From: Escherichia phage PTXU04
Sequence record: NC_048193.1
DNA: 61,600 nt
Direction: 5' to 3' (one strand)
A program made the position numbers and the translations under genes. How positions within the stretch are numbered: the first letter of the stretch is position 1; the number at the start of each line of letters is the position of its first letter. The notes under the pieces are model-generated. The model had not been told where the DNA came from, made no database searches, and was given only the letters and a program-made list of their open reading frames with translations. Positions 10,628 through 39,398 of the stretch are shown here, piece by piece.

Positions 10628-10670
10628 GTTTAATCGGGGGCTTCGGCCCCCAAATTGAAGGAGAAGTAAC

Positions 10671-10871: not shown

Positions 10872-10885
10872 TGGAGGCTCGCTAA

Positions 10886-11296: not shown

Positions 11297-11376
11297 TTAG
11301 CCGCCTTCCCGATTGGGGTCGCCTTGTGCGGCCCCTTTTTATTATGTATCATTGGAAGACCTATCTGGAGGAAGTG

Positions 11377-11685: not shown

Positions 11686-11956
11686 ACTCGATAAAACCAA
11701 ACCGTATGGTGTCATTCGTGGTCAACAGACTGGCGCAGTGAAACTGGCCTTCTATCAGAACGGTCACTACTTCGACCCGAAAGGTGAATATGTTGATCTG
11801 AATCCTACTCCTGTGAAGGAACCGGAAGCGCCAGTAATCCCTGTGAAGGAACCGGAACCGGAAGTGCCAGTGGTAGTTGAAGAACCCGTGGCTGCCGTGA
11901 AACCGAAAGCGAAAGCAAAAGTGCAACTGCCTCCGGGCCTGCCAACTAAGGAGTAA
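11660..11956 (+). CDS. hypothetical Pro/Glu-rich protein
   Basis: Frame of ORF 11480-11956; likely start at ATG 11660 or GTG 11675; C-terminal PEAPVIPVKEPEPEVPVVVEEP linker. Overlaps the upstream gene end. Confidence 0.35.
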   Translation: MEKRNVAIKLDKTKPYGVIRGQQTGAVKLAFYQNGHYFDPKGEYVDLNPTPVKEPEAPVIPVKEPEPEVPVVVEEPVAAVKPKAKAKVQLPPGLPTKE

Positions 11957-11959
11957 GAT

Positions 11960-12622
11960 ATGTCGAATACCCTGTTAGGAATGTCTCAACGAGTTGCCCG
12001 TGACGCAGGGTATTCCGGCAATATCCAGTCGGTAGCTGTGGTGTCCGGCGACGCTGCGCGCATTGTGCAGTATGTGAAGGACGCCACCACTTATATTGAA
12101 AACCTGTGGGGTGACTGGCGCTTCCTGTGGGGCGGTATGCTTGAAGGTACCGTCGATACCGGGGAAACTCATATCGTGCCACCACTCGGTCATTATCGCT
12201 GGGATCAGGCTCGTCTCATGTTTGACAACCACCTGGTCTACCCGGAACTATTTCACAACTTCAGCCCGTACAGCACCATGCTGGAACAGGGATACCCGAC
12301 TCAGTTTGTCATCATGCCGGACTCGTCTATCCAGATGTACCCGCGCCCTGACAAGCAATTCAACTTTCAATTTTCCTGGTACCGTGAGTCCGTAGAGTTG
12401 GTCAACGACTCCGACACTCCGCTGGTACCCGCGCGCTTCTGCAACACAATCGTGGCCTATGCGCTGTGGCTGTATGCAATGTACGACGACGCGGCGGAAC
12501 TGGCAGCCAAGTCTCAGGCCGAATACGACAAATACCTGCGCCTGCTTGAAGCTGACCAACGTCCTGACGGTTTCCCAACCAACCAGTCGTCCGGTAACTT
12601 CTTCTCTATTTCAGCGAGCTAA
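11960..12622 (+). CDS. virion structural protein (tail tube A-like by position)
   Basis: 220 aa; strong AAGGAG RBS; sits directly before a 756-aa protein, the arrangement of podovirus tail tubular proteins A/B. Positional inference. Confidence 0.45.
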   Translation: MSNTLLGMSQRVARDAGYSGNIQSVAVVSGDAARIVQYVKDATTYIENLWGDWRFLWGGMLEGTVDTGETHIVPPLGHYRWDQARLMFDNHLVYPELFHNFSPYSTMLEQGYPTQFVIMPDSSIQMYPRPDKQFNFQFSWYRESVELVNDSDTPLVPARFCNTIVAYALWLYAMYDDAAELAAKSQAEYDKYLRLLEADQRPDGFPTNQSSGNFFSISAS

Positions 12623-16521: not shown

Positions 16522-18134
16522 GTAACCAATATTACAACTTTATCAATCCGGCTGAAGCGGGTACGATTGTCGACCCGTTCGACTACAACCGTGAGATGGA
16601 AAAGATCACCGAGGCTTTCTCGGTGGTCCCGCCTGCTTCCCAGTTAACTTCCGGTACCCTGAACTACTCAACGGATACGGGTACCGGGAATGATCACATC
16701 GCCACGCTGGATGACTTTGATACCGACTATGTTGCCGGGAGTAACGTTGCGCTCCGAATCAATGACGCGTCTACCGGACCGTCTACCCTGAGTGTAAACG
16801 GGCTGGCCGCTAAAGACGTCACGCTGTCTGTGTTCGGCGCTGTGGCGGCAGGTGACCTGTTTGCTGAAGGTGTCTATACCTTCGTATTCAACGGTGAGCG
16901 TTTCCAGATTCTGGAGATGGGCGCACGCTATTACACTACCGCCTTCGAACAGCTTTCAATCGCCCAGGCTAAAGCTGCACTCGCGGCGGCCAGTGAAGCT
17001 GCGGCACTGAGTGAGCGTAACGCAGCAGCAGCGTCGGCGGCAAACGCCCTCACGTCAGCAAACGCTATTACCGCGTCCAAAGATGCAGCAGCAGGTAGCG
17101 CTACGTCTGCGGCAAACTCTGCGTCGGCAGCAGCAGGTAGCGCTACGTCTGCGGCAAACTCTGCGTCGGCAGCCAACACCTCTGCGGTCAACTCCGCGTC
17201 AAGCGCAACGGCGGCGGCAAACTCCGCAACGGCGGCGGCAAACTCCGCGACGGCTTCCGACGCCAGCGCAACGGCGGCGGCAAACTCCGCAACAGCAGCA
17301 GCAGGTAGCGCGGCGGACGCAGCAACTTACGCACAGGAAGCTATCGACATCGTTAACGCGCCGAACTTTCTCGACCGCGTGCAGGCGGCTATTCTTGAAC
17401 TGGAACTGTTCCCCGGCTGTACCGAGTTCTTTGACGCTGACATCGATCCTAACGTTAAGTATCCGGGTACCACATGGGTACGCTTACCAGCGTCGACATC
17501 ATTACGTATGTCCAACGCCACGGGCAGTGACGTTAACGGAACGACAGGCGCTGACAGTGTGACACTTTCGACAAACAACCTGGCCTCGCACAACCATTCA
17601 GTGACAATGGGTACCGTGAGCAGCACCGACCTGGGTACCGACACTCTGGCATCTGTTGACCTGGGTACCGACACTCTGGCTAACACTACCATCGCAGCGA
17701 AGACCACATCCAGCTTCGACTATGGTACCAAAACGGCATCAGGTTACGATCCCGGTGCGATTTCCACCAGTGGTGCTGGCGGCCACAGTCACACGTTTAC
17801 GGCGTATACCGCAGACGGATCGGGAGTGAGAATACGCTCAGCAGCGAACGACTCGACGTCTGCGGGTAACGTCACCACATCAAGTGCTGGTAACCACACG
17901 CACACTGTAGCTTTAGGTGCGCACACGCACACTGTAGCTTTAGGTGCGCACACTCACACCTTCCCGGTCGGCAGTCACACGCACACTGTAGCTTTGGGAG
18001 CGCACAGCCACACAGTGGCTTACGGCAGTCACGGACATAGTGCCACATTGTCGTTAAGCAACACTGGTTCCGGTACGTCCTTTGGCGTGGTAGAATCGTC
18101 TCTAATCTTAGTTGCATGGTACAGGAGCGCATAA
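16518..18134 (+). CDS. tail fiber-like protein 2 (paralog of 14896-16521)
   Basis: 538 aa; N-terminus MSNQYYNFINPAEAG; Ala/Ser repeats including a perfect 42-bp tandem DNA repeat; C-terminal LGAHTHTVALGAHTHTVALGAHTHTF repeats. Confidence 0.6.
   Translation: MSNQYYNFINPAEAGTIVDPFDYNREMEKITEAFSVVPPASQLTSGTLNYSTDTGTGNDHIATLDDFDTDYVAGSNVALRINDASTGPSTLSVNGLAAKDVTLSVFGAVAAGDLFAEGVYTFVFNGERFQILEMGARYYTTAFEQLSIAQAKAALAAASEAAALSERNAAAASAANALTSANAITASKDAAAGSATSAANSASAAAGSATSAANSASAANTSAVNSASSATAAANSATAAANSATASDASATAAANSATAAAGSAADAATYAQEAIDIVNAPNFLDRVQAAILELELFPGCTEFFDADIDPNVKYPGTTWVRLPASTSLRMSNATGSDVNGTTGADSVTLSTNNLASHNHSVTMGTVSSTDLGTDTLASVDLGTDTLANTTIAAKTTSSFDYGTKTASGYDPGAISTSGAGGHSHTFTAYTADGSGVRIRSAANDSTSAGNVTTSSAGNHTHTVALGAHTHTVALGAHTHTFPVGSHTHTVALGAHSHTVAYGSHGHSATLSLSNTGSGTSFGVVESSLILVAWYRSA
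17089..17172. repeat. perfect 42-bp tandem duplication inside fiber gene 2
   Basis: cagcaggtagcgctacgtctgcggcaaactctgcgtcggcag occurs twice back to back (17089-17130, 17131-17172). Confidence 0.7.
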
Positions 18135-22648: not shown

Positions 22649-22689
22649 ATGTGCTATGCTTCCCCTATCAACAAGGGGGAGCATTTCTA

Positions 22690-25600
22690 ATGGCTAGTAA
22701 CATCGACCTTTCTGGACTGGACTTATCCCAGCCAAATCAACAACCTGCAACGAAGAAGTCTGAAAAGACTGCACCTGCTATTGACCTGTCGACGGTTAAC
22801 TTTGACCTGAGCGACGTAGACTTTTCCGGTATTGGAAATGAGAAGGCTGTCACAGAACCAGCAAAAGAAGATAGCTGGGGCGACGTAATTTACAAATCTC
22901 TCGCCGCGATGCCTGAGCGTATGCAACGTTCATGGCAGGGTATCAAACAAGGCGTGGCCGTTAAAGGTCAAGACCTGACTGACGGGGTGCTGGCTGAACG
23001 CCTGCGTAACGATCCGTCATATGCTGCCGAACTGGGGATTGACCCGGCTACCTTTACCGCTGCCGAAGGCGACACGTATGCGACCAAACTGCAAAAGAAT
23101 AAAGCTCTCTACGCCGCTATTGATAAAGCGAAGGCCGCAGAACTGAATAAGGATGCCGACTTTGTTGCCGCGCGTGATGAAGGTCTTCGCCTGTCAAACG
23201 AGATTGCCAAAACTGCACCGAAGACTGGTGACGAGTGGTCAGCTAAAAACCTGGTATCCACAATCCTCACTGGCGCGCAGGACATGTCTCCGGCAATCCT
23301 GACGTCCATCCTGTTGAAGCGTCCGGTCGCTGGCCTCGCTGAGATGACTGGTCAGGCGTACGGTTCCTACTATCAGGACTCAATCGACAAAGGTCTGTCT
23401 CCGGCAGAAGCCGATAACCGCGCTACCATGTTCGCCGCACTGGAACCAATCACTGAAGCGGTACCGCTGGGCCTCATCATGAAGAAGGGTGCGACTAGCC
23501 TGACTGACCTCGGTAAGTCTGCAATGGCTGAAGGTATCCAGGAGTCCGCTACCCAGGCTATCCAGAACGGTTACGACATTGGTGTGCTTGACGAAGATAT
23601 GACGGTAGGCCAGTTCCTGAATGACGTGGCGTTCTCCGGTGTAACTGGTGCTGGCGTAGGTGGCGTGCTGCATGGCGCGGTGCAAGCTCCCGGCATGGTC
23701 AAAGACTGGAAGGATAACCGCTCTGTTAACAACGCTATCGGTGACGCTGCGGCTGAGTCCGGTCAGGCGGTAGAAGGCGTGGACCCGAACGAGTACGACG
23801 CTGTGCGTGCTGAGATGGGCGGCGGTGACGTGCTGGACCAGATGGTTGAACAGGCATCTCCTGCAATCACTGAAGCTCGCAAGTCTGCCTACATGGAAGC
23901 GCGCGCCCAGGGTATGTCTCCGGCTGAAGCGATGGCCGCATCCCGTGAAGTCGGTGAAGTCGACGCTATGGATCAGATGGTCAGCGAACTGTTCGACTCC
24001 CCGGACTCCATCTACTATGCGAACAAGGCAAGCGCCACTAACGCACCGCAGTCTGTAGCACAGATGGTACAGCAGCAGGTAGCGCAGGGTGACATTGGTC
24101 CGCTTCCGGGCGAGACTAAAGGTCTGCCGTCTCCGGGGCAAACTTCCACCATCGCTATGCCCGGTCCAGTTGCGCAGGTTAAAGAGGCCACTGGCTACAA
24201 TCCACGCGGTGCGGCTGAAGAGTCTCCGGTACTGGCAGCAGTCCAGCAGAAACTGGAAGCGCCAGCACTGCCGCCGCAGGTTACTGAAGCTGTGGTACCG
24301 CCAGCACTGCCGCCTAAAGCTGAAGTGACTCCGCCTGCGTTACCGCAGATTGACGTAGCCGCTGCACTGGAACCTACCGTTCCTGCCGCTGAGCCAGCCG
24401 CTGCCGAGGTTAAACCGAAGCCAGCACTGTTTGCCCGTACCAAAAAGAAAGCCGCGCCAGAAGTCGATACAGAAGCACTGGCCGCCGAAGAAGCACGTCA
24501 GGCAGAACTGAAGGCGAAAGGTGACGAGGCTGTAGCCAAATACGTTGAGCGTGAATCCGTGCGTCCGGCGTTACCGGGTAAGAAGCCGCCAGCTATTCAG
24601 GTCACCAACAAGATCCTGAAGGAAGCCAACGAGCGTGGCGTTGACGTCGGCAATAAAGTGAACTGGAACGGCAAGGAGTATTCCGTCGATAAATTCCAGG
24701 GCCGTGCTGTACGTCTGGTTGATGAGAACGGCAACGGTCACATTGTTGATGCCCGTGAAATCAACGTGCCGTCTGTGGTACCGGAAGGTATGAAGCGTGT
24801 ATCCCAGGAAACCAAAGACGCCCGTGAGCGTTACGACCTGGCCCCTGTAGAGTTCGAAGATGAGCGCAACCTGGGTGAGATGGTTACCGATGCACAGCAG
24901 GCGACCGACGATGTACTGGCGCAGTCTGCCGAAGTTCAGCGTGACCTGGGTGAGATGATCGCTGAGAAGGAGAAGGACAACGCCGCAATTGAAGGTGAGT
25001 CCACTCGCGTTACCGACGTTGAAGGTCGTGTTGGTTTTGAACCAGTGGAAGGTACCGACCTGGACGGGAAGTATGCGAAAGACTCCCACGGTGAAGTCCG
25101 CAAGATTACTGGCGTGCAAGGTCGTCGCTTCGTGCTGGACAATGGCGACATCATGATTCGTCGCATTGGTGACACCAACGTGATGGATGCTCCACCTAAA
25201 GGCGCACGTAAAGCGATGTCGATGGAGGAACGTATTGTAGCTAACACGCTGCAAGGTATGCTGCATTCACTGAACGATACCAAGCGTCCGCTAAACAAAC
25301 TGCGCGAAAACATGTCTCACGCTAGTAATCAGGTTGATGAACAGTACCGCCATCTGTACGCGCCACTGAAGGGTAAGACTCGCGCGGCCATGCGCAAGGA
25401 ACTGGAAGACCGTATGTCCAGTATCGCTGAGCAGTCACCTAAAGGTCTGAGCAAAGAAAGTCAGGCGACGGCTGACCGCCTGCGTGAGAAGTCTTCCGCA
25501 CGCGCTGAGTCTTTCGAGAAGTCACTGGAAGATTTCACGCGTGGTATGAAACCGCTGGTACGTCGCAACTACATTCGCGCCCTGGAGAAGATGCAACCGG

Positions 25601-28600
25601 ACGGCATTACCCTGAAGGAAACCATCGACCGTGCGTATGCCCGTGGCGATAAAGTTGACTCCCGTGACATGTCGGCACCAGCCAGACATTACGTGGCCTA
25701 CAAAGAAGCTCGCGTACCGAAGAAGACTGACAAGCCGGACGTTACCCCGAACGTCGACTATCACACGCTGGTAGGTAAAACTTTCGAGGAAGACGGCGAG
25801 ACGTTCACCGTCAAGTCTATTCACGACACGTACCTGGCTACCGAAGACTCACAAGGTCGTCGTGAGATTTTCGGCAAGGATTACGCTAAGCGTAAGATCG
25901 ACAAGCAGTCCGGCGCGGCCAGCGTTAAGCCTGCGACCGAGAAGAAAGGGATGTCACCTGAAGATGTGGCTGTGGTTGCTACCGACTTCCTGAAGAAGTT
26001 CAAAGGTGCGCAGGCAATCAACATGTCCGTCATGCAGCGTCAGGAAGACATGGGTATCGACCTGCCGGAAGGTAGCGTACTGCTCGGCTTCTACGATGCT
26101 GGCAACGTGAGCGCCAAGCTGATCTCTGAAAACCTGACCAGCAAGGAAGAAGTGGAAGCGCTGTTGCGTCACGAAATCATCGTGCACTACGGCCTGCGCG
26201 CTCGCCTGTCTAAACCGGAATACGACGCTGAGATGGATAAAATCCTGGCCGCTGATAAGTCCCCGGCGCTGGCGAAGTATTTCAAAACTGTACGCGAGCA
26301 ATACAGCGACCTGTATGACATGAACTCACCTGACGCACAACGCATGATGGCTGAAGAAGTCCTGGCGCTGGCGGCAGAAAACCCGGCTATCCTGGAGAAG
26401 TCCAACGTCATTACCCGCGTGATTGAAGCTCTGCGTCAGTTGATGATTAAAGCCAAACTGATTGACGGTCGCGCCAGCATGGAGTCAGTACGCCAGCTTA
26501 TTCAGGCCAATGCTCAGTACCTGCGTGACAACACTGTCAACCGTGACGACGTGCGTAAGTCTCTGCCGCCGATGCAATACAGCGCGCCGAAGAACTTTGC
26601 CGCCAGCCTGAAAAAGAAAAATGACATCGAGTCTGCGGAAGTGGACGAAGACATCAAGCAGGGTATGCGTGACACCATGTACCGCGATGACCGCTCTCTG
26701 TTCCAGCGCATCAAAGACATCATGAAAGACAACGGTCTGACGATGGAAGGCTTGTATCAGAAAGGCGTGGATGACCTGTACACCATCGCCAAATATGAGA
26801 AGGCTGGCAACAATGGTGAACTGCGTCAGGGTAAAGAGTCAGCGTACAAGATGGCAATGCTGGCGAAGAACGTGAACAGCACCGTGGCCGTCGCAATGAA
26901 CCACGGCGCTCCGGTATACAAAGACGGCGGCATCAGCCTGAACAAGAACACCAAAGGCTTCACCGAAATCTTCAAGCCAGTGCTGGAGATGAAAGGTAAC
27001 ATGCTGCCAGTGTGGGAATACTGGGCGGGTGCTGTGCGTGCTAAGCGCTTGATGGAAGAAGGCCGCGAAAACCTGTATACCGAGAAGCAGATTAAAGACA
27101 TCATCGACTATGTTAACCGTCGCCCGGAAATGCGTAAGGTGTTCAACCAGGCACACAAAGACTGGCGTGAGTTCAACAAAGCTATCCTCGACTTCGGTGA
27201 GCAAACTGGCATCGTGGATCCTGAGCAGCGTAAACTGTTCGAGTCCGATGACTACGTTCCGTTCTACCGTGTGGATGAGGAAGTGGACCGTGTGACAGCA
27301 CCGTCTGGAAAACGTGGCCTCGCTGATCAGTCTTCCGGTATCCGCCGTCTGAAAGGTGGCGCTGGTAAGATGGACATTCTGGAGAACATGGCGCGTAACG
27401 TTAACCACATGATCACCTCCGGCTACAAGAACGCGGCCATGCAGAAGGTGCGTGACATCACCATCAACGCAGCGCTGGAAGAAGTACCGCATAACTTCAA
27501 GCCAGTCGGCATCAGCAACGAGCAGATGAAACGTGCGCTGACCAACCTGGGTCTGAAGGTTGAAGGTATGACCGCTGAGCAGATGGCGCAATACTCCAAC
27601 CTGTTCACCGCAGTAGCACCGCAGGGCGCTAACATTATCTCCGTGCGTGAAGGTGGTAAGCCGAAGTATTACGAAGTGACGGATCCTCAGTTGTTGGAAG
27701 CTATCGCAGGTGTTGGCCCGGAAGCCGTTGATACCCTCATCAACATTCTCGGCTGGCCTAAGCGTGTGTTCACCGCAGCCGTGACGTCAACGCCTAACTT
27801 CGTTATGACCAACTTCGTACGTGACGTGATGGGTAACTATGTGCAGATGGCTAAAGCAACTGGCCGCAACGAGACGTCAACGATTGTCAAAGATGTACTG
27901 ACATTCCGTCCGTTCTTTAAAGCGTTCCAGGGTGCGATGCGTTCTATCCGTAACGATAACATGACTGTCGATTACCATGTGGCTGGCGGCATGATGGGTG
28001 GTTATGACAACTCACGTCCAGAGTCGGTTGCCAAAAACCTGCGCAAGCTGGAGAAAGGCGGCACCATCATTAACTCACCGAAGAAGCTGTGGGAAATGTA
28101 CAGCAAGTTGCTGACCGCATCTGAACAGGCCACGCGCATGGGTGTGTACGAAGATGTCCTGAAGCACACTGGGGATCCGGTGGAAGCGGCATACCAGTCT
28201 AACGATGTGCTGAACTTCAGCCGCCGTGGTAGCAGTCGTTTGACCAAAGCGGTCATGGCGATCACCCCGTTCCTGAATGCCCGTGTACAGGGTCTGGACC
28301 GTATGGTGCGCGGTGGTAAAGAGAACCCGAAAGCCTTCATGCTAAAAGGTGCTCTGCTTGTTGGTGCAACGATGGCCCTTATGGCAATCAACGCAGACGA
28401 CGAACGTTACTGGGCGCTGCCGGAACACGAACGTGATTCCTTCTGGATCATCTTCGCTGGCGACACTCGCTACCGTATCCCGAAACCGTTCGAACTGGGA
28501 GCACTGTTCGGCACTATCCCTGAGCGTGCATTCGAAGCGCTGTACCGTGATGACCGTATGTTCGGTGCACGCATGGGCTTCATGCTGGGTAACACCTTCG

Positions 28601-29283
28601 CGATGGACTGGCCTCAATTCTTCAAGCCAATCTACGAAGACCAGACCAACATGAACAGCTTTACTCAGCGTCCGGTTGTACCGCAGTCACTGCAACGTCT
28701 GGAAGCTAACCAGCAGTACAGCACCACGACGCCGGAATGGATTAAGGATGTGAGTAAGGCGTTACCTGAAGCTGCCCCGGAATGGATGCGTAGTCCGCTG
28801 CGTCTCCAGCATATGATTGAAGGTTACACCGGAACAGTCGGTCAGTACATCATCGGCGTAACGGACGTGGCCTACCGCAAAGGAACGGGTACCGAAAAAG
28901 TTGCCCCGGCTAAAAAGGATTTTGATTACCCGGTGGTAAAAACTTTCGTACGTGGCGGTGTGTCCGGCGACAAATACACCGACCGTCTGTACCAGATGAG
29001 CGAGAAGGCTGGTCAAACGTACGGTACCCTGAAGGCGTACAAAGACCAGAAGAACATGCAGGCGTATCGGGAGTTCAAGACCGAGAAGGCCAGCGTGTTG
29101 TCTGCCCGTAAGTCAATTGAGAAAGGCGTTGCCCGGATGCAGAAGTACAACCGCCAGACGAAAGAGATTTACGCGAACGACAGTATGTCACCTGAAGCGA
29201 AGCGTGCGGAACTGGACGCCTTACAGGTTAAGAAGAACGAACTGGCGAAAGAATTGAGTGACAAATATTGGATGTTGTTTTAA
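22690..29283 (+). CDS. giant virion-associated protein (~2200 aa; putative internal/ejection protein)
   Basis: ORF-track frame 22651-29283; start moved to ATG 22690 with AAGGGGGAG RBS. No P-loop or polymerase motif recognised; last gene of the structural block; followed by hairpin plus T8 (29324-29354). Confidence 0.55.
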   Translation: MASNIDLSGLDLSQPNQQPATKKSEKTAPAIDLSTVNFDLSDVDFSGIGNEKAVTEPAKEDSWGDVIYKSLAAMPERMQRSWQGIKQGVAVKGQDLTDGVLAERLRNDPSYAAELGIDPATFTAAEGDTYATKLQKNKALYAAIDKAKAAELNKDADFVAARDEGLRLSNEIAKTAPKTGDEWSAKNLVSTILTGAQDMSPAILTSILLKRPVAGLAEMTGQAYGSYYQDSIDKGLSPAEADNRATMFAALEPITEAVPLGLIMKKGATSLTDLGKSAMAEGIQESATQAIQNGYDIGVLDEDMTVGQFLNDVAFSGVTGAGVGGVLHGAVQAPGMVKDWKDNRSVNNAIGDAAAESGQAVEGVDPNEYDAVRAEMGGGDVLDQMVEQASPAITEARKSAYMEARAQGMSPAEAMAASREVGEVDAMDQMVSELFDSPDSIYYANKASATNAPQSVAQMVQQQVAQGDIGPLPGETKGLPSPGQTSTIAMPGPVAQVKEATGYNPRGAAEESPVLAAVQQKLEAPALPPQVTEAVVPPALPPKAEVTPPALPQIDVAAALEPTVPAAEPAAAEVKPKPALFARTKKKAAPEVDTEALAAEEARQAELKAKGDEAVAKYVERESVRPALPGKKPPAIQVTNKILKEANERGVDVGNKVNWNGKEYSVDKFQGRAVRLVDENGNGHIVDAREINVPSVVPEGMKRVSQETKDARERYDLAPVEFEDERNLGEMVTDAQQATDDVLAQSAEVQRDLGEMIAEKEKDNAAIEGESTRVTDVEGRVGFEPVEGTDLDGKYAKDSHGEVRKITGVQGRRFVLDNGDIMIRRIGDTNVMDAPPKGARKAMSMEERIVANTLQGMLHSLNDTKRPLNKLRENMSHASNQVDEQYRHLYAPLKGKTRAAMRKELEDRMSSIAEQSPKGLSKESQATADRLREKSSARAESFEKSLEDFTRGMKPLVRRNYIRALEKMQPDGITLKETIDRAYARGDKVDSRDMSAPARHYVAYKEARVPKKTDKPDVTPNVDYHTLVGKTFEEDGETFTVKSIHDTYLATEDSQGRREIFGKDYAKRKIDKQSGAASVKPATEKKGMSPEDVAVVATDFLKKFKGAQAINMSVMQRQEDMGIDLPEGSVLLGFYDAGNVSAKLISENLTSKEEVEALLRHEIIVHYGLRARLSKPEYDAEMDKILAADKSPALAKYFKTVREQYSDLYDMNSPDAQRMMAEEVLALAAENPAILEKSNVITRVIEALRQLMIKAKLIDGRASMESVRQLIQANAQYLRDNTVNRDDVRKSLPPMQYSAPKNFAASLKKKNDIESAEVDEDIKQGMRDTMYRDDRSLFQRIKDIMKDNGLTMEGLYQKGVDDLYTIAKYEKAGNNGELRQGKESAYKMAMLAKNVNSTVAVAMNHGAPVYKDGGISLNKNTKGFTEIFKPVLEMKGNMLPVWEYWAGAVRAKRLMEEGRENLYTEKQIKDIIDYVNRRPEMRKVFNQAHKDWREFNKAILDFGEQTGIVDPEQRKLFESDDYVPFYRVDEEVDRVTAPSGKRGLADQSSGIRRLKGGAGKMDILENMARNVNHMITSGYKNAAMQKVRDITINAALEEVPHNFKPVGISNEQMKRALTNLGLKVEGMTAEQMAQYSNLFTAVAPQGANIISVREGGKPKYYEVTDPQLLEAIAGVGPEAVDTLINILGWPKRVFTAAVTSTPNFVMTNFVRDVMGNYVQMAKATGRNETSTIVKDVLTFRPFFKAFQGAMRSIRNDNMTVDYHVAGGMMGGYDNSRPESVAKNLRKLEKGGTIINSPKKLWEMYSKLLTASEQATRMGVYEDVLKHTGDPVEAAYQSNDVLNFSRRGSSRLTKAVMAITPFLNARVQGLDRMVRGGKENPKAFMLKGALLVGATMALMAINADDERYWALPEHERDSFWIIFAGDTRYRIPKPFELGALFGTIPERAFEALYRDDRMFGARMGFMLGNTFAMDWPQFFKPIYEDQTNMNSFTQRPVVPQSLQRLEANQQYSTTTPEWIKDVSKALPEAAPEWMRSPLRLQHMIEGYTGTVGQYIIGVTDVAYRKGTGTEKVAPAKKDFDYPVVKTFVRGGVSGDKYTDRLYQMSEKAGQTYGTLKAYKDQKNMQAYREFKTEKASVLSARKSIEKGVARMQKYNRQTKEIYANDSMSPEAKRAELDALQVKKNELAKELSDKYWMLF

Positions 29284-32975: not shown

Positions 32976-33019
32976 ACTTGACGGGGCTAATGTACCCCGC
33001 CAGTAATTCACCGTCAAGT
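32976..33019 (-). terminator. nested inverted-repeat hairpin at the 3' end of the polymerase gene
   Basis: Outer arms ACTTGACGG (32976-32984) and CCGTCAAGT (33011-33019) enclose an inner CGGGG-loop-CCCCG hairpin. Terminator or regulatory element; function not established. Confidence 0.35.
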
Positions 33020-35179
33020 CTTTTTGTCGACAATTAATAATTTGCACGCTTCGAACACGTACCACAGATAGTTAACCTTGCTCCAGTCGAACTTGCTGAA
33101 GTCGCTACAGTCGGCCACGGTCTGACCGGAACACATGTTGGCCTCGGTTACCAGACCCCACTGACTTTTATTCTTCGTGTGGATGCGCTCGTCGTGCGGT
33201 ACCCCGGCAGCGTCCAGCTTGAGGAACGGTGTCGCCGGATCAGCCAGCAGTTCAGCAATAACACTGTCGTAATACTGGTCAGTGATTTTGTTCTTACGCT
33301 TCCACGTTCCGGGCGTACCCTTCGGTGCCGTGCGCTTAACCAGGCTGCCGCCGGACTGCGTGACGTAATACCGGATAGTGTTGGACAACTTCTCTTCGTG
33401 GCCGTCCGGGTAAACCAGATGCAACGACGAGTCACGGTTGACCTTGCCACGGATCATGAAGTCGAACTCGTCACGGTGGTTGATGATGAACGACGTCATG
33501 TCAGCACCGTGGACCATGCGCGCTTCAACCGCCTTCTGCACCACCAGGGCCGAGTGATCTTTATGCCACTCACGTTTGTATTCGTATGCACCTTTACGCT
33601 TGTAGCGGCTGTCTGGCTTCTCAGGATTGTAGTAACCTTCGCTGTACTCAGCGATGTACGAGTTCACGTCACGGATAAAGAAGCGGTCATAGCGGTTCTC
33701 TTCCAGTTCCAGTTTGGTAACCTGCTCCCACCACACGCGCAGATCGTTGGCGTGCTCCAGGTACTGGTCCGGGCAATGGAAGGTGATACCGTCAGTGTTA
33801 CACTGAATCATCTGTAACCCCGGCACCTTCAGTAATTGCTCAACCAGCATACACAGAGAAAGCTGCCCGTTGATTGTGATCTTCATGGTGTACATCGGGT
33901 CATAGAACACGCTGTATTCGTTGTTGCTGTTACCGTACGTACCGTTGAGGGCCAGCTTATACGCGCCACCCATCATTGTCTTTTTACCTACGCGGTTACG
34001 TTCGTTGAACAAGAACTCCGATACGTCACAGTAAACTTCCGACAGGTGCGCCGGGAAGATGCGGTTCTTGATTGACAGGTTCGGATAGTAACTTGCCACG
34101 TCCAGGTCGACGATGGTAAAGCCGTTACCGGTACGCACAATCTGGCGGTGTAGTGATGCGTGCAATCCCCCGGTACCGAAGTCATAGTTGAAACCGTCGA
34201 TGCGACAGTGCAAACTGACCGCTACAAACTTTGCCCCGGTCAGGTCGACATCAGCCGGGAGGTGCGCCAGGCGGCGCGGCTTCTTAACACCCTTCAGCCA
34301 GACCTTCACACGCTTCGGGTCCATCCACTTAACCATCTCAGGTGTACACCGGATGTCGGAGAACACACCCTTAGTTTCCTTGATTGTCTGCGCCATCAGA
34401 TAGTTTTGCACCATCTGGAATGCCGGATGTTCCAGACGGATGTAAGGTAGGATGCACTCGGCCAGTACGATTTGTGAGCGCGGAGTCTGGCGCGGTACAC
34501 GCTTGCCACCGAGTTTGCCGTAGCACTGTACCCCGGCTTTCTCCAGGGCGTGAATCAATACCTCACTGCCGATCTTCGTATCGTTCAGGTTCATGAAGTC
34601 CGACCCGTATTTCTCGGATAGTTCTTCACGGAACGCAATCATGTCATAGGACTTGATATAGAAGTCAGTGGTGGCATCAACGTCATGATCGTTGTACACC
34701 CACAGAATATCTTTTTGTTCGTTGGTGAGATGGGTACCGACCGGGAACGGCAGGTCTTCCACCTGCTTCATGCGCATGGCAATCTCAAGCGACTTCAGGC
34801 TGGTTGCCTTCGCCTTGTTGTCATAGTGGTGAATCTTCAGCAGGTCAATCTGCTTGACGAGGCGAGCGTCGGCCCACATCGGATAGGTGTTATCACCTTT
34901 GATGCGGGACATGGCCTTATTGTAGATACCCGCGACTGAACACCAGGGATTCTCATAGATCCACTGGACCACTTCCCAGTCGAACCACAGGTTGTTGAAT
35001 CCCACCATACGCTGATCGTTATTCCGCAGGTAGTTCAGGAAGTAGAACATCTTCTCCCGGTCATCGCGGCGGTCAGAGATTTCGTAGCGATAACGGTTAC
35101 CTGTCGCAACGTGACGAGCACTGAAGGTAAACGTATTCGGGTACGTCTCTATGTCGTAGGTGTAATCGCGAGCATCCAT
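33014..35179 (-). CDS. DNA polymerase, family B-like, with 3'-5' exonuclease domain
   Basis: 721 aa; YDIETY (Exo I), FNNLWFDWEVV (Exo II), DVASYYPNL (motif A, DxxSLYPS-like), KLALNGTYGNS (motif B), QCNTDGITF (motif C, DTD). Confidence 0.7.
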   Translation of the reverse strand: MDARDYTYDIETYPNTFTFSARHVATGNRYRYEISDRRDDREKMFYFLNYLRNNDQRMVGFNNLWFDWEVVQWIYENPWCSVAGIYNKAMSRIKGDNTYPMWADARLVKQIDLLKIHHYDNKAKATSLKSLEIAMRMKQVEDLPFPVGTHLTNEQKDILWVYNDHDVDATTDFYIKSYDMIAFREELSEKYGSDFMNLNDTKIGSEVLIHALEKAGVQCYGKLGGKRVPRQTPRSQIVLAECILPYIRLEHPAFQMVQNYLMAQTIKETKGVFSDIRCTPEMVKWMDPKRVKVWLKGVKKPRRLAHLPADVDLTGAKFVAVSLHCRIDGFNYDFGTGGLHASLHRQIVRTGNGFTIVDLDVASYYPNLSIKNRIFPAHLSEVYCDVSEFLFNERNRVGKKTMMGGAYKLALNGTYGNSNNEYSVFYDPMYTMKITINGQLSLCMLVEQLLKVPGLQMIQCNTDGITFHCPDQYLEHANDLRVWWEQVTKLELEENRYDRFFIRDVNSYIAEYSEGYYNPEKPDSRYKRKGAYEYKREWHKDHSALVVQKAVEARMVHGADMTSFIINHRDEFDFMIRGKVNRDSSLHLVYPDGHEEKLSNTIRYYVTQSGGSLVKRTAPKGTPGTWKRKNKITDQYYDSVIAELLADPATPFLKLDAAGVPHDERIHTKNKSQWGLVTEANMCSGQTVADCSDFSKFDWSKVNYLWYVFEACKLLIVDKKT

Positions 35180-35188
35180 TTTAAGTCC

Positions 35189-35854
35189 TTACAGTTTCGG
35201 CAATGGTGGTAAACCTGGTGCACCCGGCAGCTTCGGTGGTAATGACGGCGCGCCCGGTAGCGGTGGCAACGATGGTGTCGCCAGTGACGGTGCGGCAGTC
35301 TTCAGGATCTTCACGTTCGGACTGTCAACGTCATGCCCCAGCAGCTTCTTAGCTTTGTAGAAGAGTTCTTCCAGCATCATCAGACCTTTGTCCGGGCTAT
35401 CGGTCATCGTCGGGATACTGCGTTCTTGCTCAGCCACAAAACGGTTGGCCGCGTTGAGTGTCGAACCATCAAAGTTGTGACCCTTCAGCATCAGTTGCTT
35501 CTTATCGTTCGTCACCGCGTACAGATAAGCGTAGTGGCTGACGTGTGACTCGTAGTGATTCTGCCAGATAGTAGCGTTGCACTGGTGCTGAGTCTGGCGA
35601 CCGACGATGCGGGAGGCCATCATATTGGCACCAATCAATTCGGCCCCGGAGTTTACCAGCGTCTGCACGTTGGAGTAAATGAACTTTTTGAAAACGTCAT
35701 CACCGTAGTGGTCTGTAACTTTCTCCCAGTCCTGCAACACGTAATCGTAGCGGTGTTTCTCTTCACCGAAGATTGAGATGGACGCGGCGATAATGGGGGA
35801 ACCTAATGCAGAGTTGGCGGGGATGAGGTGTATTGCAGCGATTCGTTGTGCCAT
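35189..35854 (-). CDS. hypothetical protein with Pro-rich C-terminal tail
   Basis: ORF-track frame 35189-35869; alternative ATG at 35854; C-terminal PSLATPSLPPLPGAPSLPPKLPGAPGLPPLPKL. Confidence 0.45.
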   Translation of the reverse strand: MAQRIAAIHLIPANSALGSPIIAASISIFGEEKHRYDYVLQDWEKVTDHYGDDVFKKFIYSNVQTLVNSGAELIGANMMASRIVGRQTQHQCNATIWQNHYESHVSHYAYLYAVTNDKKQLMLKGHNFDGSTLNAANRFVAEQERSIPTMTDSPDKGLMMLEELFYKAKKLLGHDVDSPNVKILKTAAPSLATPSLPPLPGAPSLPPKLPGAPGLPPLPKL

Positions 35855-35896
35855 GATTTCGGATTCCATAAAACGCCATCCGTGGCGTGGGGATTG

Positions 35897-36208
35897 TTAC
35901 AGGCTGTTAAGCAGGTACGTCAGCTTGTCGCCCATTTCGTTCAACTTGACCGACAGATCGCGCGCTTGACGGTTCAGACTGACGAGACTTGTACCATCAG
36001 CTACAGGTTCTCCGACTGTCCCAGCCGTTGTCGGATTGTTGCCGAAGATACGACCGTACACAGCATCAAGCAGAGATTCGATACGGTCCTGACTCATAGA
36101 GATGTTATTCAGATGATCCTGAAGTTCATCGGTCAAGGTCTGCTTGACTTTAGCTTGATCGTTGTATTGTGATTCTAAAGCAGCTTTCAATTCTTTCTCG
36201 TTGTACAT
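35897..36208 (-). CDS. hypothetical coiled-coil protein
   Basis: ORF-track frame 35897-36448 trimmed to ATG 36208 (AGAGGAAAA RBS); the longer N-terminal extension runs through the upstream gene's repeat region in another frame. Confidence 0.4.
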   Translation of the reverse strand: MYNEKELKAALESQYNDQAKVKQTLTDELQDHLNNISMSQDRIESLLDAVYGRIFGNNPTTAGTVGEPVADGTSLVSLNRQARDLSVKLNEMGDKLTYLLNSL

Positions 36209-36229
36209 GGTGTTTTCCTCTTCAGTGTT

Positions 36230-36245
36230 GGCCCCTTGCGGGGCC
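36230..36245 (-). terminator. GC hairpin between genes (GGCCCC-GCAA-GGGGCC on the - strand transcript)
   Basis: Perfect 6-bp stem with GNRA-type loop between the stop of 36255-37331 and the RBS of 35897-36208. Confidence 0.4.
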
Positions 36246-36254
36246 GTGGGTTGG

Positions 36255-37331
36255 TTATGCGTTGTAAGGGTGTCCGCCAGGTGCAGCAGGTGCAGCCGGA
36301 GGTGCCATTGGTGCAGCAGGTGCAGCCGGAGGTGCCATCGGTGCAGCAGGTGCAGCGGCTGCCGCAGGTTGCATCTTACCGTTAGCGACCAGTGCTTCTT
36401 CGGTCCAGCCGCTGGCGATGTACTGATCGTAAGTGTAATCAGTCGCAATCATGCGGCTCTGCGGCGTCGGTGCTACAGGCGCAACAGGAGGTACAGCAGG
36501 AGCGGCGGCAGGTGCAGGAGCAGCAGGAGGTAGACCAGCGCCCGGAACAGCCGGAGCAGCGGGAGTTGCCGGAGGCATACCAGCGCCGGGTAAACCAGGC
36601 ATACCAGCCGGAGGCATACCAGCGCCAGGTAAACCAGGCATACCAGGTTGTGCACCCATCGCCGGAGTAGCGCCGCCAACAGGCATTGTGCTCATACCAG
36701 TCAGTGCTGCGGCAGGTGCCTGATTCAGAATGCTGGTGTAGTCAGGACCGCTCACGATCGGCGTACCGTAACCCACACGCTGAATCATGTGGAAGTTAAT
36801 GTAGATGCCGGACTGCGGTGGCGCTGAGTCGTTGCACTTGATAGAGCACAGTACGCGAACATAGTGGCCGCACGGGAAAGTGTGAGCGCCTTTAAGCTGT
36901 TGCACTTTCTTACCGTCAGGACCGATGGTGTCGTTGTACGGAGACGGTACCGCAGACTGATCAACGTCGAACACCTGTGGCTGGAAGCCGTTCTTGAATT
37001 TGATAACCCAGCAACCTTTCCAGCCAGGTTTAGCTACGTTCTGCGGAGCGTCGCCATCTTCCATCTTCCAGTGGAAACCTACCCACTGAGTCGCCTGATA
37101 TGACGCAGCGTATTTGTGAGTAGCCGCTACCTGTTGCATCAGTGCGTACAGTTCATCGAAGCGAGTGGCCGCTGGCTGGTCTTTCGGGAAGGCCACCGCG
37201 CAGAAATATTCCTCACGACCGTTCTTCAGTTCAACACCCTGGAAACCAGTGGTGTTAGCGCGGAACGGGTCGCCTGATACCAGGATGCCAGTACCAGTCA
37301 GGAATTGATCAGCAGAGTTTTGAATAGCCAT
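36255..37331 (-). CDS. hypothetical protein with Pro/Ala/Met-rich repeat C-terminus (possible ssDNA-binding protein by position)
   Basis: 358 aa; globular N-terminal domain then PGMPGLPGAGMPPAGMPGLPGAGMPP and AAPAAPMAPPAAPAAPMAPPAAPAAP repeats encoded by 30-36 bp tandem DNA repeats; sits directly after the PD-(D/E)XK nuclease. Function is positional inference. Confidence 0.45.
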   Translation of the reverse strand: MAIQNSADQFLTGTGILVSGDPFRANTTGFQGVELKNGREEYFCAVAFPKDQPAATRFDELYALMQQVAATHKYAASYQATQWVGFHWKMEDGDAPQNVAKPGWKGCWVIKFKNGFQPQVFDVDQSAVPSPYNDTIGPDGKKVQQLKGAHTFPCGHYVRVLCSIKCNDSAPPQSGIYINFHMIQRVGYGTPIVSGPDYTSILNQAPAAALTGMSTMPVGGATPAMGAQPGMPGLPGAGMPPAGMPGLPGAGMPPATPAAPAVPGAGLPPAAPAPAAAPAVPPVAPVAPTPQSRMIATDYTYDQYIASGWTEEALVANGKMQPAAAAAPAAPMAPPAAPAAPMAPPAAPAAPGGHPYNA

Positions 37332-37334
37332 TAA

Positions 37335-38510
37335 TTACTTCTCCAGTTTTGTAATAGGTTGATTCAACGCAATCATCATTGGGCTTTGTTCCGGGGTACC
37401 AGCTTCTTCGATACCACGTAGCGCCAACGTTTCAGTTTTCGGTTCGCTCAGCATCTTAGCCACGGCGTCACCGTACGTCTTCCTTATTTCTGACAGCGCC
37501 CCAATCTTACGCGGTGCTATCTTGTCCATGTCTGGTTCCATCCCGGTCACCAGCTTAATTGCTTTGGCCGCTTCCTCGACCGTCAAACTTTTCTTAGGCG
37601 CTTCCCTGGATTTTACTTTGACCATTTTCAGGTCTTTCATCACCGTGCCCTGACGCGCTAACTGTAATCCCCACTGGTACGCCCCGTCAATAAAATTCTT
37701 CACCAATTTTGATTGTTTGATGATTTTCTGAACTTCTTCCGAGGATAACAGGTTCGGATTAAACTTCACTGGCTCAGCCATGCTCATGACATACTCAGCA
37801 TTGGCGCGGCACCGACCGATAGCTTCACACCAGATACAGTGTGGACCAGCGGTCGCTAACTGGATTTCGTTGCTGTGATTAGCGGCCTGATATTCTGCCG
37901 CCACACCTGCAAATAACTCCAGTTCAGCACGCGTATACGTGGCTGTACGTATTGCTCCGGTTGCGCCGAGGCAACGTGGCTGGATGATTTCAAAGCGCAC
38001 TTCCTCCACGTTCGGGTAACGAAGAACAATGTCGAGCGCATAGCACATTAACTGACGGTTATCGTTGGCCGATACAAACGTGCGACCGAACTTCAGGTCT
38101 GCCACGATAGCCCAGTTGTTGGCAATAGCAATCGCGTGTAAATCTCGCGTGCCGAAGAAGCCCGGATGGATGTGCGTCAGGTCGACGCGATACTCGCTCT
38201 TAATATCAACAGCGACACCCAAAGCGTTACACATGTCCACTAACTGCTTGACGCGGCCAGTGTACACGTTGCAAAACTCTGCCATCTCTTCCGTGCACTC
38301 TATCCCTGTGCGGTCATAGACTTGTCCAACGAATTGACGAACATCGTAATGACCGCACTTGATTGCTTCTTCTGAAAAGTGGTGAGCCGTAGTACCTTCC
38401 TGGGCCTGGTACCCGGATTCTTCTTCCGGGCAGTTGCGGCGCATCTGGAGATAGGCTTTACAGTTCGACCACAATTCGGCACTCGATGGTCCGGTTATAA
38501 AGTGTTCCAT
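37335..38510 (-). CDS. PD-(D/E)XK nuclease with C-terminal Cys cluster (Cas4/RecB-like, DUF2800-like)
   Basis: 391 aa; GTRDLH and ADLKFG (D ... D-x-K) motifs; N-terminal Cys plus C-terminal CIWCEAIGRC cluster typical of Cas4/RecB-family phage exonucleases. Confidence 0.6.
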   Translation of the reverse strand: MEHFITGPSSAELWSNCKAYLQMRRNCPEEESGYQAQEGTTAHHFSEEAIKCGHYDVRQFVGQVYDRTGIECTEEMAEFCNVYTGRVKQLVDMCNALGVAVDIKSEYRVDLTHIHPGFFGTRDLHAIAIANNWAIVADLKFGRTFVSANDNRQLMCYALDIVLRYPNVEEVRFEIIQPRCLGATGAIRTATYTRAELELFAGVAAEYQAANHSNEIQLATAGPHCIWCEAIGRCRANAEYVMSMAEPVKFNPNLLSSEEVQKIIKQSKLVKNFIDGAYQWGLQLARQGTVMKDLKMVKVKSREAPKKSLTVEEAAKAIKLVTGMEPDMDKIAPRKIGALSEIRKTYGDAVAKMLSEPKTETLALRGIEEAGTPEQSPMMIALNQPITKLEK

Positions 38511-38522
38511 CGAGTGGTCCCC

Positions 38523-39257
38523 TTAGATAACTGACTGGCTGCGCAGGAAGTCATCGTTGGTGGCGTACTGCCAGAAGGTAAACTTGTAGCCAGACTGGAT
38601 GTCTTTCGCAGTCTTACCACCAGTGATACCGAACAGGCCGTACAGTTTTTCCAGTGCATCAGCACCATGCTTGTGGGCCAGCGCCGCAGCGGTCTGTTCC
38701 ATCGCTTCGTCGGTAGCACCGGACTCATCAGCGATTGCCGGGAAGTCGATCGCAACAGGTACCTGCGGTGCCAGCGGCGGCAGACCTACGCCAGCCAGCG
38801 GCGGTAAACCAGGCTGCGGTGCGACAGGTGCCTGCGGTGCAACGGCAGGTGCTTCAACTTCTTCAGCAGTGGCAACTTCACCACGCAGTTCCGCTTCAAC
38901 CTGCGGTACCAGCACTTCACGATCAACACCGCGCAGATATTTCCAGGTGCCGTCAGCATTGAAGGTCTTAGCCGCAGAGTGGATACGGGAGTCCCACGGT
39001 AGACCGTTCTTATCCAGCGTGGTAGCATCCGTTTCCTGACCGATTGACTGCGCTACTTCTTCAGCAACTTCGTCAGCAGCATCAGCGAAGGACTGTTGGT
39101 TACCAGCGGTACCGACCGGAGTCAGACCTTTCGCTACAGCGCCACCGAATACTGACTTCAGATCAGCTTCCAACAATTCGTAAACGCTGCCAGGCATGTT
39201 GTTAGCGCGAATCAGTTCAACGATCAGGTTGTATTTTTGTTCGATAGTAAAAGCCAT
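38523..39257 (-). CDS. hypothetical protein with Pro/Ala-rich linker
   Basis: 244 aa; GGAG RBS; internal PAVAPQAPVAPQPGLPPLAGVGLPPLAPQVPVA linker. Confidence 0.5.
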   Translation of the reverse strand: MAFTIEQKYNLIVELIRANNMPGSVYELLEADLKSVFGGAVAKGLTPVGTAGNQQSFADAADEVAEEVAQSIGQETDATTLDKNGLPWDSRIHSAAKTFNADGTWKYLRGVDREVLVPQVEAELRGEVATAEEVEAPAVAPQAPVAPQPGLPPLAGVGLPPLAPQVPVAIDFPAIADESGATDEAMEQTAAALAHKHGADALEKLYGLFGITGGKTAKDIQSGYKFTFWQYATNDDFLRSQSVI

Positions 39258-39310
39258 GTTGTATTACTCCAGGTTGATTAAAGTTTTGTTGTGTCGTGTT
39301 GACGGAATGA

Positions 39311-39340
39311 ATCATACACTCAACCAAAAACCGATTGCAA
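39311..39340 (-). promoter_or_regulatory. putative sigma70-like promoter for 38523-39257
   Basis: On the - strand: -35 TTGCAA (39340-39335), 18-nt spacer, -10 TATGAT (39316-39311). Confidence 0.35.
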
Positions 39341-39363
39341 TACTTTTTTAAAAATTTTATTAT
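39335..39363 (+). promoter_or_regulatory. putative sigma70-like promoter for the + strand helicase/primase island
   Basis: -35 TTGCAA (39335-39340), 17-nt AT-rich spacer, -10 TATTAT (39358-39363). The palindromic -35 hexamer is shared with the divergent - strand promoter. Confidence 0.4.
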
Positions 39364-39398
39364 CCTCTTCGTCAACACACATATAAGAGAACATCGAG

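Follow-up and report, generated by a model that had tools for sequence, protein, structure and literature searches.

Proline/alanine-rich spacers and short proline motifs in three proteins of the replication operon of Escherichia phage PTXU04

Escherichia phage PTXU04 (NC_048193 / MK373772), the type phage of the podovirus genus Xuquatrovirus, has a leftward replication operon in which three proteins, the single-strand DNA-binding protein (SSB) gp38, the PWDxRIH protein gp40 and the exonuclease-like protein gp36, carry segments rich in proline and alanine. The stretch of DNA analyzed here, referred to as the window, is the complete genome of 61,600 nt, and its numbering is that of the record NC_048193. 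Its ORFs coincide exactly with the published coordinates of genes PTXU04_00035-00041, and gp40 is 100% identical to PTXU04_00040. The reading that we favor, with confidence somewhat above even, is that these segments are disordered tethers whose length changes by slippage and which carry short docking motifs, in three operon proteins that are otherwise unrelated. Confidence is higher for the disordered, slippage-prone linkers and lower for the docking motifs; the anatomy of the proteins, the insertion/deletion polymorphism, the conservation of the motifs and the predicted disorder are observations, from which we infer a docking function and what the partner might be. The three proteins are as follows.

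38523..39257, minus strand: gp40 (PTXU04_00040), 244 aa, encoded at the start of the leftward replication operon
36255..37331, minus strand: gp38, SSB, 358 aa (phrog_7011; published HHpred 'SSB')
35189..35869, minus strand: gp36, 226 aa, a globular domain followed by a Pro-rich tail

A first-pass annotation of the genome had described three consecutive replication proteins with Pro/Ala-rich tails encoded by tandem DNA repeats. Such segments are indeed found in all three proteins (residues 205-288 and 321-353 of gp38, 127-169 of gp40 and 193-226 of gp36), but the genes are not consecutive, with gp39 (DUF2800) and gp37 (103 aa) intervening. Only the gp36 segment is a true C-terminal tail, whereas that of gp40 is an inter-domain linker and those of gp38 are mostly internal. 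Likewise, tandem DNA repeats are present in gp38 (30 bp in 2.6 copies and 39 bp in 2.0 copies, each with 97% matches), but Tandem Repeats Finder (TRF) reported nothing Pro-coding in gp40 or gp36. The example that had been singled out, 36281-36340, corresponds to the TRF hit of period 30 at 36280-36356. Repetition at the DNA level amounts to one 17-nt pair of 88% identity and one 20-nt pair of 90% identity in the gp40 linker, and to one 27-nt pair of 74% identity, at 30-nt spacing, in the gp36 tail.

The segments of gp38 lie on either side of a conserved module, in the following arrangement.

36720..37331, minus strand: predicted OB-fold core, residues 1-204, of the T7 gp2.5 / Enc34 ORF6 type (profile matches)
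36468..36719, minus strand: linker, residues 205-288, putatively disordered, uncharged and P/A/G/M-rich (composition, TRF)
36568-36646, minus strand: 39-bp tandem repeat in the linker, 2.0 copies, 97% matches, encoding GMPGLPGAGMPPA twice (TRF)
36372..36467, minus strand: conserved C-terminal module (C-module) of 32 aa, residues 289-320, TPQSRMIATDYTYDQYIASGWTEEALVANGKM (clade conservation)
36273..36371, minus strand: second P/A spacer, residues 321-353, of the PAAPAAPMAPP type (composition, TRF)
36280-36356, minus strand: 30-bp tandem repeat in the second spacer, 2.6 copies, 97% matches, encoding PAAPAAPMAP units (TRF)
36258..36272, minus strand: conserved C-terminal tip HPYNA (clade comparison)

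The linker contains 24 Pro, 24 Ala and 14 Gly among its 84 residues (P+A+G = 74%) and no charged residue. The C-module has the consensus TPQxRM..Y.Y..YI..GWTEE.L...GKM across the SSBs of the clade and is recognizable in those of phages 9NA, BcepB1A and ZCEC13; a regular-expression scan matched it in SSB genes only, in 8 of the 12 sequences scanned. Behind spacers of variable length, the terminal residues read H-x-Y-N/T-A/Q in every clade member listed.

The length of the gp38 spacers differs even between close relatives, of which the phage collection contained only two, Pondi (94.6% identity over the region) and HelliStehle_Bas95 (87.5%). The PTXU04 SSB gene differs from theirs by four in-frame gaps (18, 9, 9 and 3 nt), each of which falls inside a repeat tract with well-conserved flanks; the C-module is almost identical. 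The extra copy of the 39-bp repeat is missing in both relatives, and in both the second spacer has two 9-nt in-frame gaps. These clean gaps bear out the suggestion of recent duplication at the DNA level, and the repeats do reflect recent duplication or deletion. Among 14 SSB cluster representatives (83-98% identity), protein length ranges from 330 to 358 aa, and the differences fall in the two tracts where comparison is possible. The linker measures 53-99 aa in relatives where it can be delimited, with lineage-specific repeats, and the segment behind the C-module, tip included, measures 9 to about 60 aa. Since copy number varies among near-identical phages, exact length appears not to be tightly constrained. 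The free variation of repeat number among viable close relatives also goes some way against the earlier proposal, and indicates that the repeat count itself is not the functional feature.

In gp40 the Pro-rich segment separates two conserved parts.

38880..39017, minus strand: conserved PWDxRIH core, residues 81-126, LDKNGLPWDSRIHS...VEAELRG, the hallmark of a widespread phage protein family
38751..38879, minus strand: Pro-rich inter-domain linker, residues 127-169 (predicted disorder, hypervariable length)
38796-38813 and 38772-38789, minus strand: two GLPPL motifs in the linker
38526..38750, minus strand: C-terminal helical domain, residues 170-244 (AlphaFold2, clade conservation)

In the AlphaFold2 model the predicted local distance difference test score (pLDDT) is below 50 at linker residues 134-144, 149-152 and 154-158 and above 90 in the C-domain, with helices at 183-197, 199-208, 225-233 and 235-243. 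The C-domain is conserved within the clade, and gp40 is best modeled as a two-to-three-domain protein whose Pro-rich linker joins the PWDxRIH core to the helical C-domain. Among relatives, the stretch from EAELR to (I/V)(D/E)FP differs in length by up to about 40 residues, even at >85% identity. No Pfam or NCBIfam family matched gp40, and its phrog_11133 match (8e-17) is annotated 'unknown function'. A published study lists gp40 among the genes that are toxic or interfere with phage infection upon expression in E. coli.

Two side observations concern gp40. Its N-terminal ~50 residues (window 39110-39257) occur in two unrelated versions among relatives that are otherwise >85% identical, MAFTIEQKYNLIVELIRANN... 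and MSGIFESIASNNEKTVGVLEALVEQNTK... (the PTXU04, L001 and L002/Bas95 equivalents were compared), a pattern that resembles mosaic exchange at the 5' end of the gene that opens the operon. In addition, GenBank names for gp40 homologues include 'putative RecT protein', 'pyruvate dehydrogenase E1 component' and 'topoisomerase II domain-containing protein'; these misnomers probably stem from the low-complexity Ala/Pro linker and not from true homology.

The third protein, gp36, has two parts.

35300..35869, minus strand: globular domain, residues 1-190, with a predicted DEDD/DnaQ-exonuclease-like fold
35192..35293, minus strand: Pro-rich tail at the C-terminus, residues 193-226, containing three ΦPP(K)LP motifs, the last of which is LPPLPKL at the very end

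Here pLDDT is below 50 throughout residues 182-226. The earlier suggestion of flexible linkers is upheld by these low scores, which cover the whole gp36 tail and much of the gp40 linker, and by the hypervariability of the orthologues: the 21 gp36 homologues can be aligned well over their globular part, behind which comes a tail of ~30-60 aa. The predicted structure of the globular part has the RNase-H-like alpha/beta fold of DEDD exonucleases. The D-x-E acidic pair of ExoI is missing, as strand 10-17 and the next loop (RIAAIHLIPANSALGS) contain no D or E, and the equivalents of ExoII and ExoIII could not be assigned with confidence. A11 and A12 are invariant within the clade and H14 is nearly so. 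The exonuclease-like domain is probably catalytically altered or dead. No exonuclease family was matched in Pfam, PHROGs or NCBIfam, the sole Pfam match being a weak, sub-threshold one to TraG-D_C, and a hidden Markov model (HMM) search of 1.84 billion representatives returned the clade itself plus a spurious cadherin-repeat protein; the fold would be one that escapes sequence methods. A relationship by sequence to the DnaQ-like exonuclease of Rhizobium phage P106B, which is also encoded between the SSB and polymerase genes, was considered and rejected (hhalign probability 0.4%). The start of gp36 is ambiguous between the annotated ATG at 35869 and the Met6 ATG at 35854, with a strong Shine-Dalgarno sequence at neither. 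The latter, which the first-pass annotation had used, is favored because the first residue of every more distant homologue aligns with residue 7.

The globular parts of the three proteins are a predicted OB fold (gp38), an unassigned fold (gp40) and a predicted DEDD-like fold (gp36). This lack of relationship also counts in part against the earlier proposal. In alignment-free counts, a motif of the form x-G-[LMIV]-P-P-x (PGLPP-type) is present in all 18 gp40s of the clade, in 1-3 copies each, even where identity has fallen to 38%; of 49 distant gp40 homologues that share the core and likewise have Pro-rich linkers, only 1 has it. The 21 gp36 homologues each contain 2-5 ΦPP motifs, and 17 of them have LPPLP among their final 8 residues. 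Of 23 clade SSBs, 22 contain G[LMVI]PP, as against none of 6 distant SSBs with equally Pro-rich C-terminal halves. Composition-preserving shuffles of the gp40 linker gave an expectation of 0.04 copies of G[LMV]PP where 2 are observed (P=0.0005; for the SSB, see below), and the Leu and Pro codons of the motif differ synonymously between copies and lineages. The enrichment over shuffles and the synonymous variation together argue for selection on the protein rather than on the DNA. Motif-bearing versions of gp36, gp38 and gp40 co-occur, because gp36 exists only in this clade. Sequence comparison is thus suggestive of a common docking site for the ΦPP motif of all three proteins. The common partner that had been proposed gains some ground in that a related motif is conserved in all three proteins of this clade only, but no such partner emerged.

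Several points weigh against a docking role. Counts were made without alignment because MAFFT is prone to aligning prolines with one another where complexity is low. In the SSB linker, 3 copies of G[LMV]PP are observed against 0.22 expected from the same kind of shuffles (P=0.0008), a value that is inflated because 2 of the 3 stem from one recent duplication and so are not independent. Two SSBs of the clade, L007/P0156 and L009, lack a ΦPP motif and carry GMPG-type repeats instead, so the SSB motif is not universal and may be compositional. Neither a partner nor a Pro-peptide-binding domain was identified for the ΦPP motifs, and the disorder ascribed to the gp38 linker comes from composition and hypervariability alone. 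In a published knock-down screen (Adler et al.) gp36 was scored 'Not Fit', so its tail may matter little in laboratory conditions. Finally, PxxP docking by the linker of E. coli SSB, the analogous model, has been challenged experimentally (PMC7145534, PMC10164576).

Some of these points, namely the L007 and L009 SSBs and the score of gp36, would be expected if the spacers were neutral low-complexity filler, that is, passive linkers made by slippage in which the shared motif is a by-product of composition and descent and nothing is docked. The hypervariable length and sequence and the polymorphic copy number among near-identical phages would also follow. Ala/Pro linkers elsewhere, such as those of pyruvate dehydrogenase E2, are simple spacers, and annotators have in fact mislabeled homologues with the E1 name given above. 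We consider this explanation unlikely. Filler would not readily keep an exact PGLPP in every clade gp40, within a linker that is otherwise unalignable and in different codons, nor would one expect the motif to be absent from 48 of the 49 distant homologues whose linkers are also Pro-rich. In addition, LPPLP in gp36 and H-x-Y-N in the SSB have stayed at the C-terminal end, and the shuffle tests give P values of ~5e-4 to 8e-4.

A further alternative is that elastin-like P/G/A/V/M repeats phase-separate the SSB, with gp40 and gp36 as clients, and so form a condensate or coacervate that serves as a replication compartment. The SSB linker, uncharged and dominated by P, A and G, would suit this role, PGVPG- and PGMPG-type repeats occur in relatives, and published work ties both the cooperativity and the phase separation of E. 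coli SSB to its linker (bioRxiv 10.1101/2022.01.17.476650, PMC11947617). However, the gp40 and gp36 segments are short (~35-45 aa), and motifs and tips that are strictly conserved speak for specific contacts, not for an effect of overall composition. Furthermore, aromatic residues and Arg commonly drive phase separation, and the linkers contain neither. A condensate appears improbable. It is very improbable that the repeats of the SSB gene act at the DNA level, as iterons or another cis-acting replication or recombination site: near-perfect direct repeats do lie in the middle of a replication operon, and the lambda origin inside gene O is a precedent, but there are only 2-2.6 copies, their number differs between phages with nearly identical flanks, they coincide exactly with in-frame peptide units, and the synonymous differences in the motif codons and the entirely different repeat units at the same protein position in more distant relatives lead us to reject this reading.

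Under the favored reading of tethers with docking motifs, replication slippage on GC-rich Pro/Ala codon repeats would change spacer length rapidly and generate the 30- and 39-bp tandem duplications, and that length would be only loosely constrained. The spacers are probably polyproline-II-like. Selection would maintain the presence of a spacer together with the short motifs; for gp40 these are PGLPP, for gp36 ΦPPΦP and the LPPLP at its terminus, and for the SSB GΦPP, the C-module and HPYNA. The spacers would then act as tethers and the motifs and tips as docking peptides, which may hold replisome and recombination components together around SSB-coated single-stranded DNA (ssDNA); the parts docked in this way would be the SSB, the PWDxRIH protein gp40, the exonuclease-like gp36 and other components of the two machineries. 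Parallels to such an arrangement would be bacterial SSB with its linker and tip, T7 gp2.5 with its acidic tail and the Pol III epsilon subunit with its C-terminal tether. Disordered linkers with docking tips are an accepted mode by which SSBs organize replication and repair proteins. Support also comes from the fitness screen mentioned above, in which both gp38 (2.06, p=7e-4) and gp40 (fitness 1.81, p=9.6e-5) were scored 'Fit'.

The comparison with known SSBs depends on the assignment of gp38. The first-pass annotation had suggested an SSB for the 358-aa protein, beside a Cas4-like (DUF2800) nuclease and upstream of the polymerase, and this is supported. Residues 7-321 match phrog_7011, 'Gp2.5-like ssDNA binding protein and ssDNA annealing protein', at 1.3e-44; Adler et al. 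annotated gp38 as SSB by HHpred, and the BASEL annotators named the Bas95 orthologue 'ssDNA binding and annealing protein, Gp2.5-like'. The match to Pfam PF10991 (Enc34_ssDNA-bd, formerly DUF2815) has E=3.2e-4 and 20.9 bits, under the 26-bit gathering score, and the same family is matched by 5 of 9 aligned gp38 family members and carried by the homologue P0165 (E=6.6e-46 to gp38). A direct sequence search of the PDB with gp38 gave no match, and in a PDB profile search Enc34 5odk ranked first, but weakly at E=0.86. The gene context is that of duf2800-gp2.5-polymerase, with DUF2800 directly upstream and the polymerase downstream behind two small intervening genes. Profiles and context together point to gp38 as a T7 gp2.5/Enc34-type SSB of the duf2800-gp2.5-polA module.

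In common with T7 gp2.5 and Enc34 ORF6, gp38 would have an OB-type core, as predicted from phrog_7011 and weakly from PF10991, in this gene context, and a C-terminal region outside the fold, presumably the protein-interaction end. According to the Enc34 structure paper, prokaryotic and phage SSBs all characteristically have an acidic C-terminal tail; in Enc34 ORF6, D or E accounts for 16 of the last 29 residues (PMC5686142). Unlike those short, strongly acidic tails, the last 154 residues of gp38 contain only 4 D/E (and 2 K/R), and the C-terminus, GGHPYNA, is non-acidic. The general plan of E. coli SSB is matched in gp38: a predicted OB core is followed by a long, hypervariable low-complexity linker and a conserved terminal peptide, the linker varying while the tip is kept. 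In E. coli SSB the linker is Pro/Gly/Gln-rich with PxxP motifs and the tip is the acidic DDDIPF. In contrast, gp38 would belong to the gp2.5-type OB family and not to the bacterial tetrameric SSBs, lacks DDDIPF, and has an extra module inside the tail. As far as sequence can tell, gp38 replaces the acidic tail with an uncharged linker, a 32-aa module, a second spacer and the HPYNA tip. To our knowledge, textbooks treat the acidic SSB tail as universal. The subfamily that includes PTXU04, 9NA, BcepB1A, ZCEC13 and others would show that a gp2.5-type SSB can dispense with it, and gp38-type SSBs would be a natural system for asking what tail chemistry is needed for.

The other two proteins also have partial parallels. 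The gp36 protein resembles the epsilon subunit of E. coli Pol III, whose C-terminus is a tether, in having a small exonuclease-fold domain, a flexible C-terminal segment and a gene next to that of the polymerase. It differs from epsilon and other DEDD exonucleases in lacking a profile match and the ExoI acidic residues, and its Pro-rich tail is dissimilar. The inter-domain linkers of the 2-oxo-acid dehydrogenase E2 chains are Ala/Pro-rich swinging arms, and the PTXU04 spacers resemble them in being (A/P)n, extended, flexible and of a length that varies between species. We know of no conserved docking motifs in E2-type Ala/Pro linkers, whereas PGLPP and LPPLP are conserved inside the PTXU04 spacers.

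In a bolder version, which we regard as distinctly unlikely, a clade-specific network of ΦPP(Φ)P motifs replaces the near-universal acidic SSB tail, so that gp40, the pseudo-exonuclease gp36 and the SSB dock on a single common site, which might be the OB barrel of the SSB itself or the polymerase of the clade, with the PWDxRIH protein as an unrecognized fourth core member of the duf2800-gp2.5-polA module. If true, this would amount to a PxxP/SH3-style modular recruitment system in a phage replisome. ΦPPΦP was also considered as a host beta-clamp or SSB-tip-type motif, and this was rejected, as it resembles neither the clamp consensus QL[SD]LF nor the SSB tip DDDIPF.

The spacers can be followed well beyond the close relatives of PTXU04. 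The order helicase, PWDxRIH protein, DUF2800, gp2.5-like SSB, polymerase is found in Salmonella phage 9NA, Burkholderia phage BcepB1A and Rhizobium phage P106B, and again in Escherichia phage ZCEC13, Vibrio phage 142E35-1 and four metagenomic relatives. For 9NA gp68, hhalign confirmed a core of the PWDxRIH type (probability 96.5%), and a Pro-rich stretch lies directly behind the core in every PWDxRIH-family protein inspected. The SSBs have lineage-specific repeats, namely ATPAPVAAPV x8 in 9NA, GMGAPA x6 in BcepB1A, SAPMQPQQ x5 in the Vibrio phage and Q/P-rich units in P106B. These comparisons indicate that the spacer is a family-wide architecture older than PTXU04. The PWDxRIH family is widespread and always travels with the DUF2800 nuclease and SSB.

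The duf2800-gp2.5-polA replication/recombination module has been described for many phages (Steczkiewicz et al. 2021, PMC8093625). The PTXU04 operon agrees with it in having a DUF2800 nuclease, a gp2.5-like SSB/annealing protein and a polymerase, with no separate ssb gene. Unlike the module as described, PTXU04 and at least 5 other lineages have the upstream PWDxRIH protein as a fourth member, and in the PTXU04 clade gp37 and gp36 are inserted between the SSB and polymerase genes. The phage itself, the module and the SSB assignment were already known, and Pro-rich disordered linkers are ordinary. Within the literature searched, what appears to be new is the PWDxRIH protein as a conserved fourth module member, the clade-specific ΦPP motif shared by gp36, gp38 and gp40, a C-terminal architecture, in this subfamily of gp2.5-type SSBs, that is modular and non-acidic, and the predicted exonuclease-like fold of gp36. 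A literature search on Pro-rich or non-acidic gp2.5-like SSBs, or on the 9NA gp66 repeats, found nothing relevant.

Within this wider group, the PWDxRIH homologue of P106B consists of two open reading frames (ORFs), gp54 and gp53, which meet in a Gln/Pro-rich region; the gene may be split, or frameshifted, at the linker. The idea that gp53 is a detached gp40 C-domain is unproven, in that composition and position are suggestive but hhalign found no significant similarity. P106B also has a tRNA-Leu gene between its DUF2800 and SSB genes. These P106B observations refer to positions 3071-3807 and 4890-4965 of its sequence.

The remainder of the PTXU04 module is as follows; on the minus strand the order is gp40, gp39, gp38, gp37, gp36, gp35, and the helicase gene gp41 runs divergently from 39399.

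37335..38510, minus strand: gp39, DUF2800 (Cas4-like PD-(D/E)XK) nuclease (Pfam PF10926, phrog_69)
35897..36208, minus strand: gp37, a small 103-aa protein, not Pro-rich (syntenic in relatives)
33014..35179, minus strand: gp35, DNA polymerase, downstream end of the module (phrog_1252 at 2.6e-176)
39258..39398, no strand assigned: gp40/gp41 intergenic spacer with back-to-back promoter-like sites, 39340->39311 on the minus strand and 39335->39363 on the plus strand

The gp39 protein has the features of a DUF2800/Cas4-like nuclease: it matches PF10926 at 7.2e-46 over profile positions 1-339 of 368 and phrog_69 'exonuclease' at 6e-54, and its cysteines 17, 225, 228 and 234 (C...CxxCx5C) form an Fe-S type four-cysteine signature. 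It contains no Pro-rich segment. An orthologue of gp35 carries PF00476 (DNA_pol_A). By synteny gp37 appears to be a clade-specific companion of gp36, and it is absent between the SSB and polymerase genes of 9NA and BcepB1A. The NCBIfam search gave no match for any of the six module proteins. In the knock-down screen gp39 was 'Not Fit' and gp37 'Semi-fit'. A promoter and terminator scan of the region found site counts not above those in shuffles, and only the divergent gp40/gp41 pair was noteworthy.

The repeats should not be over-read, given polymorphic copy number, spurious antisense ORFs and misleading database names. Opposite the Pro/Ala-coding tracts lie two Gly/Ala/Pro-rich ORFs of 90 and 146 aa, 36451-36723 (plus strand) and 38599-39039 (plus strand), which are compositional artifacts of GCN/CCN repeats and not genes. 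A six-frame scan for at least 8 Pro per 30-aa window, in which only frames matching known or long ORFs were counted and the others were judged by eye to be alternative-frame or antisense artifacts, returned gp36, gp38, gp40, the gp25 frame and the frame 11453-11953. Gp25 (ORF 22651-29283) is a 2,198-aa 'polyvalent' protein with LPD38, scored 'Fit' in the published screen. Its P/A-rich linker, around residue 550 (window ~24250-24350), contains three PALPP-type motifs (APALPPQ...PPALPPK...PPALPQ), and it is the only other gene product recognized in the genome with this class of motif.

Other observations in the relatives concern insertions and nearby genes. The helicase orthologue of HelliStehle_Bas95 carries an annotated intein (L002 9291-12155) and the DNA polymerase coding sequence is joined from two pieces (L002 2872-5134); both insertions are absent from PTXU04. 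In metagenomic relatives (L009 9908-10099; L006/L007 ~10646-11968), a small gene just downstream of the polymerase has a weak Pfam match to Acb2/Tad1-hairpin (anti-CBASS/Thoeris sponge). The gene before the endolysin matches RdgC (recombination-associated), and its Bas95 equivalent is annotated 'exonuclease recombination-associated protein'.

Elsewhere in the PTXU04 genome, repeats at 15384-15668, 17085-17311, 16342-16420 and 17895-18032 fall in two adjacent ~540-aa proteins (14896-16521 and 16518-18134). They consist of 21/42-nt tandem repeats that encode Ala/Ser/Thr/Asn-rich heptads (e.g. SATAAAN), together with 27/54-nt repeats. These proteins are probably fiber-like structural proteins, with a class of repeat unlike that of the replication module.

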